Positions 57,125-63,980 of a stretch of 64,000 nucleotides of DNA are shown piece after piece. This DNA is from Permianibacter sp. Its GTDB lineage: Bacteria > Pseudomonadota > Gammaproteobacteria > Enterobacterales > Permianibacteraceae. A program made the position numbers and the translations under genes. The notes under the pieces were generated by a model. It did not search any database. It was given only the letters and a program-made list of their open reading frames with translations, and was not told the DNA's origin. Within the stretch, counting starts at the first letter, position 1. Each line of letters starts with the position of its first letter. Location of the stretch: positions 20,743 to 84,742 of the forward strand of contig JAYSEY010000015.1 of NCBI GenBank assembly GCA_041913605.1, read 5' to 3'.

Positions 57125-57414
57125 GGCGGCATCCTCCTTCATCCGGGGCTCGCCTGTGCAGCCTAGTCCGCCCGTTGACGTCGCTCCATGCGGGTTTTAG
57201 AACGAATGCTTGTTCCCGCACATCTGCTCATTCCGCAAGGGACTTTAAGGGCGGCAGCGAACTGGCCATGTTGCAGGCGCCATCGCGCCAACAGTGAGCG
57301 GCACCGCTACACTGCGCCGGACGGGCGGGCGCAGTCCTGACGCGATTGGACTGGCAGCGACGCGGCCCAAAGCAAATGCCGTTGTCCCGTGTTCACGAAT
57401 GAGGATCTTTGTTG

Positions 57415-57663
57415 ATGTCCGATGCGGAAATCGCCCGTCGCGGACCGTTTCCGGTGCGTGTCGAACAGGGCAAGACTTACTGGTGGTGCCGGTGTGGAAA
57501 AAGTGCCACGCAGCCGTTCTGCGATGGCTCACACAAGGGCGGATCGTTCACGCCGGTGAAGTTTGTTGCCGATGACACCGAAACGGTGTTTTTCTGCGGT
57601 TGCAAACGCACGGACGATCAGCCGCTTTGCGATGGCAGTCACCAGAAACTGGGTGGCTGCTGA
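57415..57663 (+). CDS. CDGSH iron-sulfur domain protein (two motifs)
   Basis: WCRCGKSATQPFCDGSH and FCGCKRTDDQPLCDGSH. Confidence 0.95.
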   Translation: MSDAEIARRGPFPVRVEQGKTYWWCRCGKSATQPFCDGSHKGGSFTPVKFVADDTETVFFCGCKRTDDQPLCDGSHQKLGGC

Positions 57664-57825
57664 CAGGCGCCTGCTGTCGTTGAAGTTGTTGCCGGGTGTG
57701 CTGCAGATCAGCGCCCCGAAAAAATGCCCATCCGGGCTTAGGCGAACTCATCGATTTGCACCGACGAAAAAAGTGCAGGAACAATTGCAAAAAATCGCGC
57801 ACTGTTCCCGGACAATTTTCCGTTG

Positions 57826-57859
57826 CGCGCAGGTTTGCTGAAATCGGCAAACCTGCGCG
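57826..57859. terminator. Hairpin between convergent genes
   Basis: CGCGCAGGTTTGC-tgaaatcg-GCAAACCTGCGCG. Confidence 0.6.
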
Positions 57860-57864
57860 ATAGT

Positions 57865-58764
57865 TCAGCGATTGCCGACGGCGCGTGGCGGCAGGCTGCG
57901 CAGATATAATTGCATCGCATCCAGATCGGTATCGGTCAGTTGCCCGAGGCTGGAAAATGGCATCACTGCACTGACCGCACTGCCATCCGGCCGCCGGCCG
58001 CTGCGCATCATGCTGCGGAAACTTTCCGCATCGGCATAGCGCGGCCAAATGCTGCCTTCGCCCGGCGTCAGGTTGGCGGCGGGTGGCCATTCCGGCGGTG
58101 CGCCGGGAATGCGGCCACCGGAAAATTGTTCGCCGTGACAGCCCATGCACATCGCCGCAACATAGGCACCGTATTCAGGCGTAACGGCAGCGGTGACGGC
58201 TGGCGCAGGCGGCAGATGGTGATCAACTTTTTCCGCGCCGTCCCTGATCACGCCGAAACCGTACAGCGTTTTGACCAGCGTGGTCAGGCGGATCTCGGTG
58301 CCCGGACTATTGCTCGCCGGTAACTGGCGCAAATATGCGATCAGTGCAGCGAGATCGGTATCGGAGATCCGGTTGTAATCTTCGGTCGGCATGATCAGCA
58401 GCGGCCGGCCATCCGGTTTCAGACCGTGACGGATCGCCGCCACCCAGTCTTTTTCCGTGTACTGGTTCACCACACCGCCTGGCGTGATATTCGGTGCGCG
58501 CACAAAAAATCCGTCCGGCGCGTCGATGAACACTTTGCCGGCGCCATCGTTGCCGTGGCACTCGGTACAGCCGCGCGATTCGAACAGGTATTTGCCGTGC
58601 GGCAGAATCGCCGGATCGGTGTTGTAGGGCAGTGCGGGAATATCGACGCGTACCACGCGTCCGCGTTTCTGATCAGCAAGGAAATTGCCGGCCAGCAGGG
58701 CGCCGCCGATGACCACGGCGATCACGCCGACGCCGACCAGCGGCCATTTGATGATCCGCTTCAT
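57865..58764 (-). CDS. Membrane-anchored diheme cytochrome c
   Basis: CTECH and CMGCH motifs, APNITP / AANLTP, N-terminal TM segment. Confidence 0.92.
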   Translation of the reverse strand: MKRIIKWPLVGVGVIAVVIGGALLAGNFLADQKRGRVVRVDIPALPYNTDPAILPHGKYLFESRGCTECHGNDGAGKVFIDAPDGFFVRAPNITPGGVVNQYTEKDWVAAIRHGLKPDGRPLLIMPTEDYNRISDTDLAALIAYLRQLPASNSPGTEIRLTTLVKTLYGFGVIRDGAEKVDHHLPPAPAVTAAVTPEYGAYVAAMCMGCHGEQFSGGRIPGAPPEWPPAANLTPGEGSIWPRYADAESFRSMMRSGRRPDGSAVSAVMPFSSLGQLTDTDLDAMQLYLRSLPPRAVGNR

Positions 58765-59019
58765 GACACGCTCCATCGTGTTGTCTGAGCTTCTGAATAT
58801 CGGCAAACGCGACGTTCCGGTAGCGTTTGCCGGTTCCCGCGGTGGCGGGTCGCGCGCAAGGCCCGGGTGGTCATGCGCAGCGCCCGCGCATGGTAAAGCA
58901 GGCGCGCTGGCGAAGCATCGCCGGCACGGTCACGGGTGTAAGCGGATGTGTGTCTGCAGATCAGTGGCGGGGAAGCCGTTGCCACAGGGGAGTGGCACAG
59001 TAGTGCGAAAACGCAAGAT

Positions 59020-59050
59020 AAAAAAATGCGCACCGGAGTGCGCTTCTTTT
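59020..59050 (-). terminator. Terminator after the yebC paralog
   Basis: Minus strand: GCGCAC-tccg-GTGCGC followed by ATTTTTTT. Confidence 0.7.
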
Positions 59051-59079
59051 AAATCTGGTATCTGCAGTTCGAGCGGCGA

Positions 59080-59784
59080 TCAGCCGGCCAGACCGACGTA
59101 CACGTGCTGCACATCATCATCGCCGTCGAGCGCTTCGAGAAACGCTTCGACTTCGGCGAGCTGCGTGGCATCGCTGATGGTGACCGGATTTTTTGGCTTG
59201 TAACCGAGCTTGGCGCTCTGCACCGTGAAACCGAAATTCGGCAGTGCGCGCTGCACGGCGTCGAGATCGGTCGGCTCGGTGTAAAACAGTGTCGCGCCGT
59301 CTTCGCCCGGCTCGAAATCCTGGGCGCCAGCTTCGATGGCCGCCACTTCGGCGTCGGCGTCCTTGTTGGCCGGCGCCGCTTCGATCATGCCCAGATAGGC
59401 AAAATCCCAGCTGACGGCACCGGCGGCGGCGAGCTGGCCCTTGCGGAACAGCACGCGCACCGAGGAGGCGGTACGGTTTTTGTTATCAGTCAGGCATTCG
59501 ACGATCACCGGTACCTGATGCGGGGCAAAGCCTTCGTAGGTGACCAGCTCGTAGTTGACGACTTCATCCAGCAGGCCGGCGCCTTTCTTGATGGCGCGTT
59601 CCAGCGTGTCGCGCGGCAGCGAGGCTTTTTTCGCCGCTTCAATGGCCAGACGCAGGCGCGAGTTCATTTCCGGGTCGGGACCGCCACGTGCAGCGACCGT
59701 GATTTCTCTGGTCAACTTGGTGAAGATGCGACTTTTCGCGGCCGCTGATTCCAGCTTGCCCTTCGTCTTCCACTGTGCGCCCAT
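59080..59784 (-). CDS. yebC: YebC/PmpR family protein (stand-alone paralog)
   Basis: [61 protein letters not shown]. Confidence 0.95.
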
Positions 59785-59989
59785 ACCTGCAATCTCGCTT
59801 GTTCAATGAGGCCCGCCTCGCGGGCTGTAACGGCCGTCCGCGCGGCGCGCGGAGCGGGCGGCGAGTATAACTGCCGGCCACGCGGGCGGGCAGCGGGGCG
59901 GGGTCAAAAAGAAGGTGGGGAGGGCGTGACGTCGCCAGCGGGCCGGGTACTGGCGGACGTGGTGATGGTTGAGGAGGGGGCGTGTACCC

Positions 59990-60115
59990 GTAGGATGGGT
60001 AGAGCGCAGCGAAACCCATCAGGGTAAAGCGCTGAAGTCCAGGCTTTGTTTCTCCAGCCGGCCGCAGTGCTTTACGCCGATGGGTTTCGGCGCCTTGCGC
60101 CTCTACCCATCCTAC
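59990..60115. repeat. REPIN-like inverted doublet of GTAG REPs (family B)
   Basis: gtaggatgggtagagcgcagcgaaacccatc (59990-60020) and reverse copy at 60079-60115. Confidence 0.9.
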
Positions 60116-60144
60116 GTTTCACGTTTCACGTTTCACGTCTCACG
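60114..60144. repeat. Heptamer tandem repeat (ACGTTTC) x about 4.4
   Basis: acgtttc acgtttc acgtttc acgtctc acg, abutting the REP tag. Confidence 0.9.
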
Positions 60145-60166
60145 CTCCGCACCGAGCTCCTTGTGC

Positions 60167-60664
60167 TCAGCTTGCACTGGCCGGCAACGACAGTTTGTAG
60201 AATCTGGAATCGACGGCCATGACGGGGAACGTGGCGGGCAGTCCGGATTTGGCGACTTCGATGAAACCGTTCTTTTCGTAGAAGCGGTGTGCGGCCAGAA
60301 ACTTCGCGGTGGTGCCCAGATAAATGCGTTCGAGTTGATGCTGTGCGGCCCAGTCCAGCAAGGTATGCAACAAGCGCTGGGCAACGCCAAGGGTTTGGCC
60401 GCGGAACGGCGCGGCGACGAACATCTTGCGCAGTGCGGCTTCTCTGTTGCCGATATCGAGCAGGGCGATGGTGCCGACGATCTGCTGGTCCACTTCCGCT
60501 ACCCAGAAGTTGCCGCTGCCGTGCTGGTAAAACTGCGCGATGTTGCTCAGGTCCGGTTGCGCATCCAGTGTGATCGGAATACCAAATTCGAGTTGTTGTA
60601 TGGGCAGGATGACGGCAGCGATGGCCTGCGTGTCCTGGGCTTCACTGGGACGAATATGCGTCAT
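60167..60664 (-). CDS. GNAT family N-acetyltransferase
   Basis: IQQLEFGIPI...QPDL, GNFWVA, LRKMFVAAPFRG, LGTTAKFLAAHRFYEKNGF. Confidence 0.92.
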   Translation of the reverse strand: MTHIRPSEAQDTQAIAAVILPIQQLEFGIPITLDAQPDLSNIAQFYQHGSGNFWVAEVDQQIVGTIALLDIGNREAALRKMFVAAPFRGQTLGVAQRLLHTLLDWAAQHQLERIYLGTTAKFLAAHRFYEKNGFIEVAKSGLPATFPVMAVDSRFYKLSLPASAS

Positions 60665-60786
60665 GTGCGGGGCACCGGCGTTTGAACTGGTCGGGTCCAG
60701 TACATCCGGCTGGCAATGCCGGCGACTGGTTTGGTAGTGCGTGATTTTTCAGTTCGCCGACCGTTCCGGCAAGCATGCAAACGTTA

Positions 60787-60825
60787 CAGGATAAGTTTCG
60801 GCGCCGGGCGCCGAAACTTATCCTG
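60787..60825. other. 39-bp near-perfect palindrome downstream of the EF-G-like gene
   Basis: CAGGATAAGTTTCGGCGCC-g-GGCGCCGAAACTTATCCTG. Confidence 0.85.
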
Positions 60826-60878
60826 CTTTGCGCTGCGTTCATTATTCATGTTGTGCATTGCACGCGAATGCTGCGCTT

Positions 60879-62915
60879 TCATTCCTCTTCATGGCGTTTG
60901 TATTTGCCGGCCAGTTCTTTTTGCACGGCCGGCGGTACGGCTTCGTAGTGGCTGAGTTCCATGACGAAGAAACCTTCGCCGCCGGTTTGTGCGCGCAGCC
61001 GGGTCTGGAAGGCGGGCAGTTCGGCGATCGGCAATTGCGCGCGGATACGGGCGCGGCCGTTGAGGCCGCTGTCGGTGCCGTTGATCAGGCCGCGCCGGCC
61101 GGTGAGTTCGCCGGTGATGTCGCCGACGTTGTGCGCCGGCGCGTCGATGTCCAGTTGCGCGATCGGTTCGAGAATGATGGCCATGGCCTTGTCGATGGCA
61201 TCGAGCATGGCTTTGCGTCCGGCGGCGACAAACGCGACTTCCTTGGAGTCAACGGAATGGTGTTTGCCATCAAGGATGGTGACACGCAGATCCTGTAACG
61301 GAAAACCGGCGATGGCGCCGCTGTGCAAAACCTCGCGCACGCCTTTTTCCACGGCCGGCATGAACACGCCGGGAATGGCGCCGCCGACCACGGCATCGAC
61401 AAAGACAAAGCCTTCGCCGCGCGCCAGCGGTTCGATTTTCAGCGCCACTTCGCCGAACTGGCCGGCGCCGCCGGTTTGTTTTTTGTGGCGCGCAAATCCG
61501 TCGGCAGCAAGGCTGATGGTTTCGCGATAGGGCACCGAGGGCGGCGTGATCTGCAAGGCGACATTGGCGCGTTCACCGAGGCGTGCCTGGGCAATGCGCA
61601 GGTGCATATCGCCGAGTCCCCAGAGCACGGTTTCATTTTGCTGGGCGCGGTGTTCAACGCGCAGGCTCGGATCTTCCAGGGCGAGTTTTTGCAAGGCTTC
61701 GCCGAGCCTGGCTTCGTCGCCGGGTTTGGTGCAATGCAGGGCAATGCCGTGCAGCGGCGTCGGCAGTGCCGGCTCGGCGAGGTGATGGTGATCTTCATCG
61801 TGACTGTCGTGCACCACGGCGCCGTAATGCAGTTCGTCAATCTTGCTGATCACCACCAGTTCTCCGGGGCCGGCACTGGCGATCTCCTGTGCCTGTTTGC
61901 CGCTGCCGTTGAGCAGATGCGCCAGCCGGAACGGTTTGCGCGCGTCGCCGACGAACAGGTTCTGGCCGCTGCGCAGGCTGCCCTGCCAGATGCGCAAAAA
62001 CGCCAGTCGACCAACGTAGGGATCGAGCGTGAGTTTGAACACATGCGCGAGCGCGTGCGCGTTGGCATCGACGGTGACAGGAACCGGTTTGTACGGTGGC
62101 TGTTCGCCTTTGACGAAGTGCGGCGGATTGCATTCACCGGGATGCGGTGCCAGTGCCATCAGCACCTGCAGGGTTTCGGCGATGCCGATGCGCGGCCGCG
62201 CGGCGGCAAACAGCACCGGCACGACATGACCTTCACGCAGCGCACGTTCAAACGGATCGTGTAGCTGTTCCGGTGTCAGCGCTTCGCCCTGTTCCAGATA
62301 GCGGCTCATCAGGGCTTCATCGAGCTCGATGATTTGATCGACCAGCGCGTCGTGGGCGGCGCTGATGCGACCGAGATCGCTGTCGCCATCGACCGGGGCA
62401 AAAAACGCATCGGCAACGCGCGCGCCGCGTCCGGCCGGCAAATTGATCGGCAGGCATTCGCTGCCGAAACGTTCGCGCACCTGTGCCAGCACGGCGCCGA
62501 GATCGACGCTCGGCTGATCGATGCGGTTGAGGACGATGAACACGTCGAGGCCGCGTTCGCGCGCGGCGCGGAACAGCCGTTCACTGTGGTAGTCGACGCC
62601 GGTGCCGGCATTCAGCACCAGCAGTACGGCATCGACGGCGGCCAGCACGCTGAGTGTGCGGCCGATGAGATCCGGCAGGCCGGGTGTGTCGAGGATCTGG
62701 AAGCGCACACCCTGGGCGGTGAAGGTGTGCAGGCTGACGTCGAGGGTGTGGCCGAGTTCGCGGGCCAGCGGATCGGTTTCGCTGACCGTGACGGGACTGC
62801 CCGTGTGCTGCTGCAACTGCTCCAGCAGCGTGGTCTTGCCGGCGCCGGCGGGGCCGACCAGCGCCAGCGTGCGGTGGCTTGCCAGGGTGGTTCCGTTGCG
62901 TGGGGTGTCGTTCAT
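60879..62915 (-). CDS. Elongation factor G-like protein (EF-G2-type paralog)
   Basis: GPAGAGKT, DTPGL, NRID; HKKQTGGAGQFGEV, GGAIP, GKHHSVDS and domain V; AGGAG RBS; not in the str operon. Confidence 0.93.
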   Translation of the reverse strand: MNDTPRNGTTLASHRTLALVGPAGAGKTTLLEQLQQHTGSPVTVSETDPLARELGHTLDVSLHTFTAQGVRFQILDTPGLPDLIGRTLSVLAAVDAVLLVLNAGTGVDYHSERLFRAARERGLDVFIVLNRIDQPSVDLGAVLAQVRERFGSECLPINLPAGRGARVADAFFAPVDGDSDLGRISAAHDALVDQIIELDEALMSRYLEQGEALTPEQLHDPFERALREGHVVPVLFAAARPRIGIAETLQVLMALAPHPGECNPPHFVKGEQPPYKPVPVTVDANAHALAHVFKLTLDPYVGRLAFLRIWQGSLRSGQNLFVGDARKPFRLAHLLNGSGKQAQEIASAGPGELVVISKIDELHYGAVVHDSHDEDHHHLAEPALPTPLHGIALHCTKPGDEARLGEALQKLALEDPSLRVEHRAQQNETVLWGLGDMHLRIAQARLGERANVALQITPPSVPYRETISLAADGFARHKKQTGGAGQFGEVALKIEPLARGEGFVFVDAVVGGAIPGVFMPAVEKGVREVLHSGAIAGFPLQDLRVTILDGKHHSVDSKEVAFVAAGRKAMLDAIDKAMAIILEPIAQLDIDAPAHNVGDITGELTGRRGLINGTDSGLNGRARIRAQLPIAELPAFQTRLRAQTGGEGFFVMELSHYEAVPPAVQKELAGKYKRHEEE

Positions 62916-63070
62916 GGCGGTGCTCCTGCTTGCGGCCGTCGCGCAGGCGGCGGCGGACAGGCCGACGGGGTCGGCGTTCGGCAGCGACAGGCAGGGGGAT
63001 GGCGGCAGGACTGCAGCACGTGTGCCGGCTGCACGGGGCAGGGCAGGCGGAACGTGCTCGGGCCGTGCAT
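62912..63070 (-). CDS. Possible 52-aa proline-rich upstream ORF overlapping the EF-G-like start (ATGA)
   Basis: Manual translation: MHGPSTFRLPCPVQPAHVLQSCRHPPACRCRTPTPSACPPPPARRPQAGAPP*; no clear SD. Confidence 0.25.
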   Translation of the reverse strand: MHGPSTFRLPCPVQPAHVLQSCRHPPACRCRTPTPSACPPPPARRPQAGAPP

Positions 63071-63106: not shown

Positions 63107-63150
63107 AGTATAGACAGCGACGGCTCGCGCTCCTGACAGTCTGCTGTCAG
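63107..63150 (-). promoter_or_regulatory. Palindromic operator plus -10 element facing the EF-G-like gene
   Basis: CTGACAG-tctg-CTGTCAG (63133-63150); minus-strand TATACT at 63112-63107, 20 nt downstream of it. Confidence 0.7.
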
Positions 63151-63287: not shown

Positions 63288-63980
63288 ATGACCCGTCGCG
63301 CCGACCGGCTGTTTGCCCTGTTGCAGCAATTGCGCGGCGGCAAGGTATGGACGGCGCAGAAGCTCGCCGAAGCGCTGGAAGTGTCCGAGCGCACCATCTA
63401 TCGCGACATTGCCGATCTGCAGGCCAATGCCGTGCCCATCGACGGCGCCGCCGGTGTCGGCTATCGCTTGCAGCCGGGCTTTGAACTGCCGCCGCTGATG
63501 TTCACCCGCGACGAGATCGAAGCGCTGGTGATCGGCGCGCGGCTGGCGCGGGCGGTGGTCGGCGATGCGCTGGTGCCGAGCATTGACCGGGCACTGGCGA
63601 AAATCGAAACCGTGCTGCCGAAAGAGCGGCGCCGTGATCTGCAGCGTCCGAAAGTGTTTGCGCCGGCGCCGGTGGTGGAAAAAGCCGTGCAGGACACGCT
63701 GCACCAGCTGCGCATGGCCATCGACACCCGGCACGTGGTGCATGTCCGTTACACGCGCGAAGACGGTGAACAGAGCGAGCGCGATCTGCTGCCGCTCGGC
63801 CTGTATTTCTGGGGCAAGACCTGGACGCTGGTGGCCTGGTGCGAAATGCGCGACGACTTCCGGCATTTCCGTCTTGATCGCATCAATGCCCTGACACTGA
63901 GCGCGCGCACTTTTGTCGATGAACCCGGCCGCACCCTGCAGGATTTTCTGCGCGGCATCGGCGTGGAGCAGGACGTCTGA
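63288..63980 (+). CDS. YafY-family HTH-WYL-WCX transcriptional regulator
   Basis: RRADRLF...LAEALEVSERTIYRDI, LPPLMFTRDEIEAL, WTLVAWCEMRDDFRHFRLDRI. Confidence 0.95.
   Translation: MTRRADRLFALLQQLRGGKVWTAQKLAEALEVSERTIYRDIADLQANAVPIDGAAGVGYRLQPGFELPPLMFTRDEIEALVIGARLARAVVGDALVPSIDRALAKIETVLPKERRRDLQRPKVFAPAPVVEKAVQDTLHQLRMAIDTRHVVHVRYTREDGEQSERDLLPLGLYFWGKTWTLVAWCEMRDDFRHFRLDRINALTLSARTFVDEPGRTLQDFLRGIGVEQDV

Follow-up and report, generated by a model that had tools for sequence, protein, structure and literature searches.

An EFG II-type paralog of elongation factor G in Permianibacter with leucine at the catalytic histidine position and a shortened switch I

Our analyses concern a paralog of elongation factor G (EF-G) encoded in a 64,000-nucleotide stretch of a Permianibacter genome (assembly GCA_041913605.1, contig JAYSEY010000015.1, positions 20,743 to 84,742; hereafter the window). 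Judged by its sequence signatures, the paralog, a protein of 678 amino acids (P0001; minus strand, 60879..62915), is a member of the EFG II subfamily (Margus 2011), within the beta/gamma-proteobacterial group and of the fusA2 type; it stands out within that known group but does not represent a new kind of factor. We propose that it acts as an accessory factor beside the canonical EF-G, binding GTP, hydrolyzing it poorly, and serving as a slow translocase and/or a stress factor. This proposal leans on analogy with characterized homologs, and we give it a probability of roughly 0.55. By comparison across homologs, the loss of the catalytic histidine is the normal state of EFG II and is not distinctive of this gene; what departs from the family norm is the leucine that stands in its place, altered G4 and G5 motifs, and a switch I that is shorter by nine residues.

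Family placement of the paralog

The gene was delineated by an open reading frame call together with Pfam, NCBIfam and AlphaFold2 evidence. Pfam recovers GTP_EFTU, EF-G_D2, EFG_III, EFG_IV and EFG_C, that is, all five EF-G domains, and AlphaFold2, run on a 91-sequence alignment, predicts a complete five-domain EF-G (predicted local distance difference test, pLDDT, 92.5; predicted TM score, pTM, 0.87), with confidence dipping solely at residues 41-50 of switch I (pLDDT 76). When the model was compared with known structures by Foldseek, TM scores of 0.77 were obtained both for Thermus thermophilus EF-G-2 (1WDT) and for the ribosome-bound form of Bacteroides thetaiotaomicron EF-G2 (8DMF). A phmmer search of the Protein Data Bank (PDB) with the G domain returned 1WDT first and TetM second, followed by 9K0Z and 7UVP, with canonical EF-Gs scoring far lower than the EF-G2s and TetM.

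Profile searches point in the same direction. For NF009891 ('elongation factor G', PRK13351.1-1) the paralog reaches 833.4 bits (cut-off 597), and the match spans positions 8-679 of the 681 in the profile, whereas the model of canonical EF-G, TIGR00484, scores 380 bits in two stretches, below its cut-off of 659.4. The named EF-G2 models also fall short (NF009377, 456.6 versus 890; NF058620, for Bacteroides EF-G2, 389.1 versus 1000); these two cover other EFG II sub-subgroups. NF009891 is an 'equivalog' whose best matches here are histidine-less EFG II proteins, and the genome's true EF-G scores just under its cut-off (590 versus 597). The naming of this profile leads automatic annotation to label both genes 'elongation factor G', a pipeline name that is misleading for the paralog.

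EFG II proteins have been described (PMC3150367) as carrying Gly instead of Ala where the P-loop starts (position 16) and Leu instead of Thr where it ends (position 25), and as lacking the RGITI G2 motif; beta/gamma-proteobacterial members have xxHSL in its stead, the fourth position still being Ser or Thr. In the same account, DxPG in G3, NKxD in G4 and (g)SAx in G5 are conserved, domains I-III are relaxed, domain IV equals that of EFG I in conservation and has basic residues in its loop I, and an EFG II gene always occurs alongside another EF-G gene, usually EFG I. The paralog resembles this beta/gamma group (the 'EFGII' of Atkinson 2015, PMC4342817) in most respects. Its P-loop, GPAGAGKT (residues 21-28; minus strand, 62832..62855), is followed by T-L, so that both the initial Gly and the Leu after GKTT are of the EFG II type; the corresponding segments read GPAGAGKTTL here and AHIDAGKTTT in the genome's own EF-G. 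The G2 motif is LGHTL, where relatives have LGHSL or LQHSL, thus conforming to xxH(S/T)L. Loop I of domain IV contains the basic HKKQTGG, and the basic loop-I motif HKKQTGGAGQFGE is present in 118 of 120 homologs. The deletion in the G' subdomain typical of the group is shared as well.

The pattern of divergence and the genomic company of the gene agree with this placement. Over Permianibacter pairs, identity is 43-54% in the G core and 72-83% in domain IV, the latter being the best conserved and the former the least conserved part in every pair. The genome contains a single EFG II copy, and a canonical EF-G is encoded on another contig (C8), with 1219 bits to TIGR00484, the motifs AHIDAGKT, RGITI, DTPGH, NKMD and GSAFKNKG, and 31% identity to the paralog. 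RF3, LepA, BipA, EF-Tu and IF2 are encoded elsewhere in the genome, and a third EF-G-like gene was not found in it. A phylogenetic tree of the paralog, its relatives and the genome's own EF-G1, into which no named EFG I, spdEFG or EFG II references entered, groups the paralog at 100/100 support with proteins of the genus and of other Gammaproteobacteria that carry EFG II signatures; a branch of 4.4 substitutions per site leads to EF-G1.

Two of the motifs described as conserved in the subfamily are altered: the paralog has NRID in G4 and AAA in G5, though DTPG is present. Variants of the N/T-R/Q-x-D type occur at G4 in 38 of 169 clear EFG II relatives and have at least 16 origins. Because such variants are frequent in EFG II, we regard the mismatch as a deviation within the family that gives no ground for exclusion from it.

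The GTPase center and its lineage-specific changes

A preliminary description of the gene, which dealt with 62480-62915 (the G-domain core, residues 1-145), had drawn attention to DTPGL in place of DTPGH, NRID in place of NKxD, LGHTL in place of RGITI, an apparently shortened switch I, and intact loops in domain IV, and each of these readings holds. G3 is DTPGL at residues 76-80 (minus strand, 62676..62690), and Leu80, encoded at 62676-62678, occupies the position of the catalytic His in EF-G and of the usual Tyr in EFG II. G4, NRID, spans residues 130-133 (minus strand, 62517..62528), where the family has NKID, and the G5 region, AAARPRIG, spans residues 237-244 (minus strand, 62184..62207), where the family has SA(E/R)(T/S)GxG. 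Alignments place switch I and G2 at residues 38-58 (minus strand, 62742..62804), with LGHTL as residues 54-58. In domain IV, tip loop I, KQTGGAGQFG (residues 479-488; minus strand, 61452..61481), contains Q480, G482, G483 and G485, all invariant across 91 sequences, and tip loop II, HHSVDS (residues 552-557; minus strand, 61245..61262), contains the likewise invariant H553, V555, D556 and S557.

The elements that bind GTP and magnesium are retained: the P-loop, the Mg-coordinating Thr57 of G2, D76 and G79 of the DxxG motif, and N130 and D133 of G4. The acidic G' helix is also present. The paralog therefore shares with canonical EF-G (FusA, TIGR00484) the five-domain architecture, the elements of the EF-G binding site and the domain IV tip loops, but it differs in having no catalytic His, no RGITI, a P-loop without AHID, and a shorter G' subdomain. 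The canonical AHID and RGITI segments are reported to contact the sarcin-ricin loop (bioRxiv 10.64898/2026.05.25.727771).

How unusual is the missing histidine? It is absent from all 120 closest homologs, of which at least 114 read D(T/A)PGY. In a more diverse sample of 110 representatives at 50% identity with recognizable G1 and G3, the residue after DxPG is Tyr in 58, Phe in 17, Ala in 8, Ser in 7, His in 4, Met in 3, Glu in 3 and Leu in 2, with a few others. The EF-G2s of solved structure read DAPGY (Thermus), DTPGY (Mycobacterium) and DCPGS (Bacteroides). In a tree of 169 sequences, a non-aromatic residue arose at this position at least 11 times; the 'catalytic' position is evolutionarily labile in beta/gamma-proteobacterial EFG II. 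As a side observation, the segment at residues 76-83 of the paralog is DTPGLPDL (62667-62690), with a second Leu three residues past the His position, where the canonical DTPGHVDF and the family's DTPGYPDF have Phe. The PDB entry 3ZZT is titled as Staphylococcus aureus EF-G F88L, a fusidic-acid-resistance mutant, which may or may not concern the same position as the leucine seen here.

The truncation of switch I is the more exceptional feature. The spacing between G1 and G3 is 47 residues in the paralog and 56 in 120 of 120 closest homologs; 56 also predominates more widely, with 98 of the 110 diverse representatives and almost every one of 168 family loci having it. After the paralog, the shortest spacings are 50-52, and its 47 is the smallest value among approximately 400 sequences examined. 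The nine missing residues would follow helix A and precede the GxTVxD segment of switch I; lost with them is a Gly whose conservation in the family exceeds 90%.

Relative to the EFG II norm, then, the paralog has Thr instead of Ser in G2, Leu instead of Tyr in G3, NRID instead of NKID, Ala-Ala instead of Ser-Ala in G5, and the deletion in switch I; the changes assigned to its lineage are Tyr to Leu, NKID to NRID, G5 Ser to Ala, and the nine-residue deletion. Six Permianibacter orthologs all have DTPGY, NKID and a full-length switch I, and when four orthologs of the same order are added, switch I is full-length in all ten, with Tyr in nine and Ser in one. On this comparison, Leu, NRID and the deletion are confined, within the genus, to the lineage of the window genome. 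Beyond the genus, the 169-sequence tree indicates at least four origins of a shortened switch I. One metagenomic sequence (L094; contig Ga0256841_1002432, EFG II N-terminal 80 codons) combines DTPGL, NRID and a six-residue deletion at the same place. It comes from an unrelated gammaproteobacterial lineage whose nearest relatives have Tyr or Phe and normal spacing, and its combination, which arose independently, hints at a repeatable evolutionary route.

We also considered whether lineages that no longer have an aromatic residue at the His position tend to lose the G4 Lys as well. The raw list of sequences looked suggestive, but phylogenetically independent pairs divided 4.0 in the same versus 2.9 in the opposite direction (p ~1), and the association was rejected.

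EFG II proteins are among the most widespread paralogs of bacterial translation factors; few have been characterized, those cited here being from Thermus, Mycobacterium and Bacteroides, and these members disagree on GTP hydrolysis. At least two lineages combine Leu with a truncated switch I, and purifying selection has persisted in them. Alongside the Tyr-bearing, full-length orthologs of sister species, such lineages constitute natural variants for testing how much of the GTPase switch EFG II can do without.

Possible functions and competing explanations

We propose the following mode of action for the paralog. It would dock at the EF-G site of the ribosome in its GTP-bound form, its GTP turnover would be very slow or nil, and binding energy would be used for slow translocation and/or occupation of the A site, as reported for Bacteroides EF-G2; the factor may serve when energy or nutrients are limiting. 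Translocase-like engagement is favored because nowhere in the family is conservation stronger than at the tip of domain IV. Given Leu80 and the truncated switch I, GTPase activity seems less likely in the paralog than in its Tyr-bearing orthologs. A precedent for this mode of action is B. thetaiotaomicron EF-G2 (BT2167; 7UVP/8DMF), which resembles the paralog in lacking the His (DCPGS), in having a G4 without Lys (NQLD), and in the fold of its ribosome-bound form, and which differs in belonging to a Bacteroidota sub-subgroup, in its length of 718 amino acids and in its full-length switch I. This protein is described as enabling GTP-independent translation and as induced by carbon limitation (PMC10294740).

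The gene neighborhoods of EFG II in other bacteria offer a loose fit to a role in starvation. Upstream sequence of 3.5 kb or more was available for 109 family loci, and 41 of these have the EFG II gene directly downstream of, and on the same strand as, prkA (yeaG), a DUF444 gene (yeaH) and spoVR (ycgB), with a median gap of ~350 bp to EFG II. Examples are L120:1139-8046, L080, L105 and ~50 others, the PrkA protein having AAA and kinase domains. In Escherichia coli, the homologs of these three genes are starvation and stationary-phase genes. It is conceivable that prkA, DUF444, spoVR and EFG II form a starvation-response module, although all such loci with taxon names are from Steroidobacteraceae, the remainder being metagenome-assembled genomes, and we accordingly count the context as the arrangement of one clade. 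We found no literature linking these genes to EF-G2. In loci of the Chromatiaceae type, a divergent response-regulator gene lies upstream of EFG II instead.

Several observations weigh against the function that we propose. The prkA context is restricted to one family and absent at the window locus, no SpoVR match was found in the window genome (98.7% complete), and a conserved operon partner was not found in the Permianibacter loci. The literature searched yielded no paper on a beta/gamma-proteobacterial EFG II, nor any biochemistry for one. The G4 Lys-to-Arg and G5 Ser-to-Ala changes and the truncation of switch I could affect not just hydrolysis but the binding of nucleotide, making it weaker or different. 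Finally, T. thermophilus EF-G-2 (1WDT/2DY1), the best PDB match to the G domain of the paralog, lacks the His (DAPGY) and is reported to have intrinsic and ribosome-dependent GTPase activity and to translocate (PMC3150367; bioRxiv 10.64898/2026.05.25.727771). Because of this precedent, His loss alone is no proof of GTPase loss, and residual GTPase activity of the paralog is possible. The preliminary description had reasoned from the missing His to a hydrolysis-poor translocase or ribosome rescue or protection factor. The hydrolysis-poor translocase or ribosome factor stands insofar as it agrees with published EF-G2s; the argument from the His is weakened, its loss being the family norm and the Thermus protein being active without it.

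A second explanation, which we hold to be possible but distinctly less probable, is that the paralog is a ribosome-binding stress factor that does not translocate and that stabilizes or silences 70S or 50S particles with neither GTPase activation nor ratcheting. The model here is Mycobacterium smegmatis EF-G2 (9K0Z/9K10; Foldseek TM score 0.68), an accessory, non-essential protein in which Tyr98 replaces the His. Minimal ribosome-dependent GTPase activity, or none, is reported for it, along with no recycling, a non-ratcheted 70S complex and a stress-specific role (bioRxiv 10.64898/2026.05.25.727771). Both proteins have a P-loop of the form GP(S/A)G(G/A)GKT, and for the Gly-Pro-Ser-Gly-Gly segment of the mycobacterial protein, which GPAGAGKT resembles, a loss of sarcin-ricin loop contacts is reported (same source). 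With its shortened switch I and Leu80, the paralog would be uncoupled still further from GTPase activation. The mycobacterial protein differs in belonging to an actinobacterial sub-subgroup, in its full-length switch I, in its TKLD G4 and in having Tyr instead of Leu. Against this explanation, the tip loops of domain IV, whose contact in translocation is with the codon-anticodon helix, are invariant across the family, as would fit translocase-like engagement of the A site. The stress-factor and translocase readings could both hold, and sequence gives no means of telling them apart.

Could the paralog instead be a slower second EF-G, a ribosome-dependent GTPase and translocase with a different catalytic arrangement? 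The reported activities of the DAPGY-bearing Thermus protein, the statement that EFG II substitutes for EF-G at a much slower rate (PMC4342817), and the retention of the nucleotide-binding elements speak for this explanation. The Thermus protein, however, has Tyr, a full-length switch I and a TKLD G4. Leu80 offers no hydroxyl or ring nitrogen for positioning water, switch I, which helps to order the active site, is nine residues shorter in the paralog, and in mycobacterial EF-G1 the H88Y substitution already nearly abolishes GTPase activity (bioRxiv 10.64898/2026.05.25.727771). We consider a second active EF-G unlikely.

Far less credible is that the gene is a redundant duplicate in decay, with a G domain drifting toward loss of function. 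This explanation could draw on the four G-domain positions or elements that are off the family consensus in this lineage only, on the rearrangement of the locus on both sides relative to same-genus genomes, and on the rapid divergence of EFG II, whose copies in the window genome and its congeners are 58-65% identical, as opposed to 84-92% for EF-G1. Pseudogenization had been raised in the preliminary description as an outcome to look for, and no sign of it was seen. The reading frame is full-length and preceded by a good Shine-Dalgarno-like sequence, AGGAG, 7 nt 5' of the ATG (minus strand, 62923..62927). A sibling protein from another assembly (P0122) is 94% identical, of equal length, and has the same Leu, NRID, G5 and deletion. 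Selection was assessed by protein-level tests on this pair; genome and metagenome scans for DNA of close relatives returned nothing above 62% identity. The 41 substitutions in P0122 are conservative, with a mean BLOSUM62 score of +0.83, where simulated random missense changes give -0.59 +/- 0.26 (none of 5000 simulations reached the observed value), and they fall on weakly conserved columns (0.356 versus 0.515; 0 of 20000 permutations), an avoidance of conserved columns that holds in the G domain alone (p = 0.009). Divergence between the two proteins is 5.0% in the G domain and 6.0% overall. Features of the same kind, a non-aromatic residue such as Leu, an Arg-type G4 and a short switch I, arose at least 11, 16 and 4 times, respectively, in intact relatives. 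These comparisons argue that the paralog is intact, is not decaying and is under purifying selection.

Nor does its rate of evolution single it out. In comparison with Permianibacter fluminis (G005), EF-G1 is 92% and the EFG II copy 64% identical. The stem branch of the window copy and P0122 measures 0.47, little longer than the 0.38 of the sister clade, and the per-domain divergence of the window copy is typical of deep Permianibacter lineages and no outlier. Together with the synteny to P. fluminis that is kept downstream, these values led us to reject exceptional acceleration or a horizontal origin; the paralog evolves fast, but in this it is like EFG II proteins at large.

The protection factor of the preliminary description, in the form of a Tet(M)/Tet(O)-like ribosomal protection protein or a fusidic-acid-insensitive EF-G, could appeal to an EF-G-like fold, an accessory gene and the second rank of TetM among the G-domain matches, but it is the least probable explanation of all, since the 213.8 bits obtained with NF012153 (tet_protect) fall short of the 775 required, the remaining Tet models score far lower, the domain IV loops are of the EF-G/EFG II type, and no resistance-gene context was found around the paralog.

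The locus and its surroundings

On the upstream side, nothing in common with congeners was found over ~15 kb. A divergent gene there encodes a regulator with a helix-turn-helix (HTH) and a WYL domain (plus strand, 63288..63980; Pfam HTH_11 and WYL). Homologs of this regulator were not found in the 20-kb EFG II loci of same-genus relatives, and distant ones occur in 5 of 167 family loci, ~2.3 kb downstream; a conserved linkage between the WYL regulator and EFG II was rejected, as the adjacency is seen only in the window genome. Between the two genes lies a perfect 18-bp palindrome, CTGACAG-TCTG-CTGTCAG (63133-63150). The sole other perfect copy in the genome (C1:46874-46891) is at an unrelated locus, flanked by genes for a TetR regulator and an aquaporin. 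The idea of a regulon defined by CTGACAG-N4-CTGTCAG proved uninformative, with one other genomic site and also one for the control pattern. A sigma-70 promoter scan of the region upstream of the paralog found nothing.

A bolder version of our proposal can be built on this arrangement. Leu80, which takes the place of the residue that faces the gamma-phosphate, the truncated switch I and the altered G4 and G5 might leave the nucleotide switch inoperative, such that ribosome binding would be GTP-locked or nucleotide-independent, and the rearrangement might have placed the gene under the control of a ligand-sensing regulator of the WYL type, making it a signal-induced brake or slow gear of translation. 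We regard this combination as speculative and rather improbable, though somewhat less so than a slower second EF-G with GTPase activity.

On the downstream side, a perfect palindrome with a 19-bp stem (60787..60825) lies 54 nt 3' of the stop codon. It resembles either a repetitive extragenic palindromic (REP) element or a terminator, has no clear U-run, and suggests that the paralog is transcribed on its own. Farther downstream, the genes are syntenic with those of P. fluminis and comprise a PNP-oxidase-like gene, a GNAT gene, a GntR-aminotransferase gene and two genes of unknown function. Between these genes and the paralog is a segment of ~3.7 kb (57200-60870) that is absent from the P. fluminis locus. 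On its minus strand it encodes a cytochrome c (57865-58806), a member of the YebC/TACO1 family (59080-59784) and a GNAT acetyltransferase (60167-60664). YebC/TACO1 proteins have recently been linked to the relief of ribosome stalling, and the proximity of this gene to the paralog may or may not be meaningful. REP-like elements (59989-60116 and 60787-60829) flank the GNAT acetyltransferase gene; the arms of the first, at 59989-60004 and 60101-60116, are perfectly complementary, and the REP-like copy at 60079-60118 is related to that at 60790-60829.

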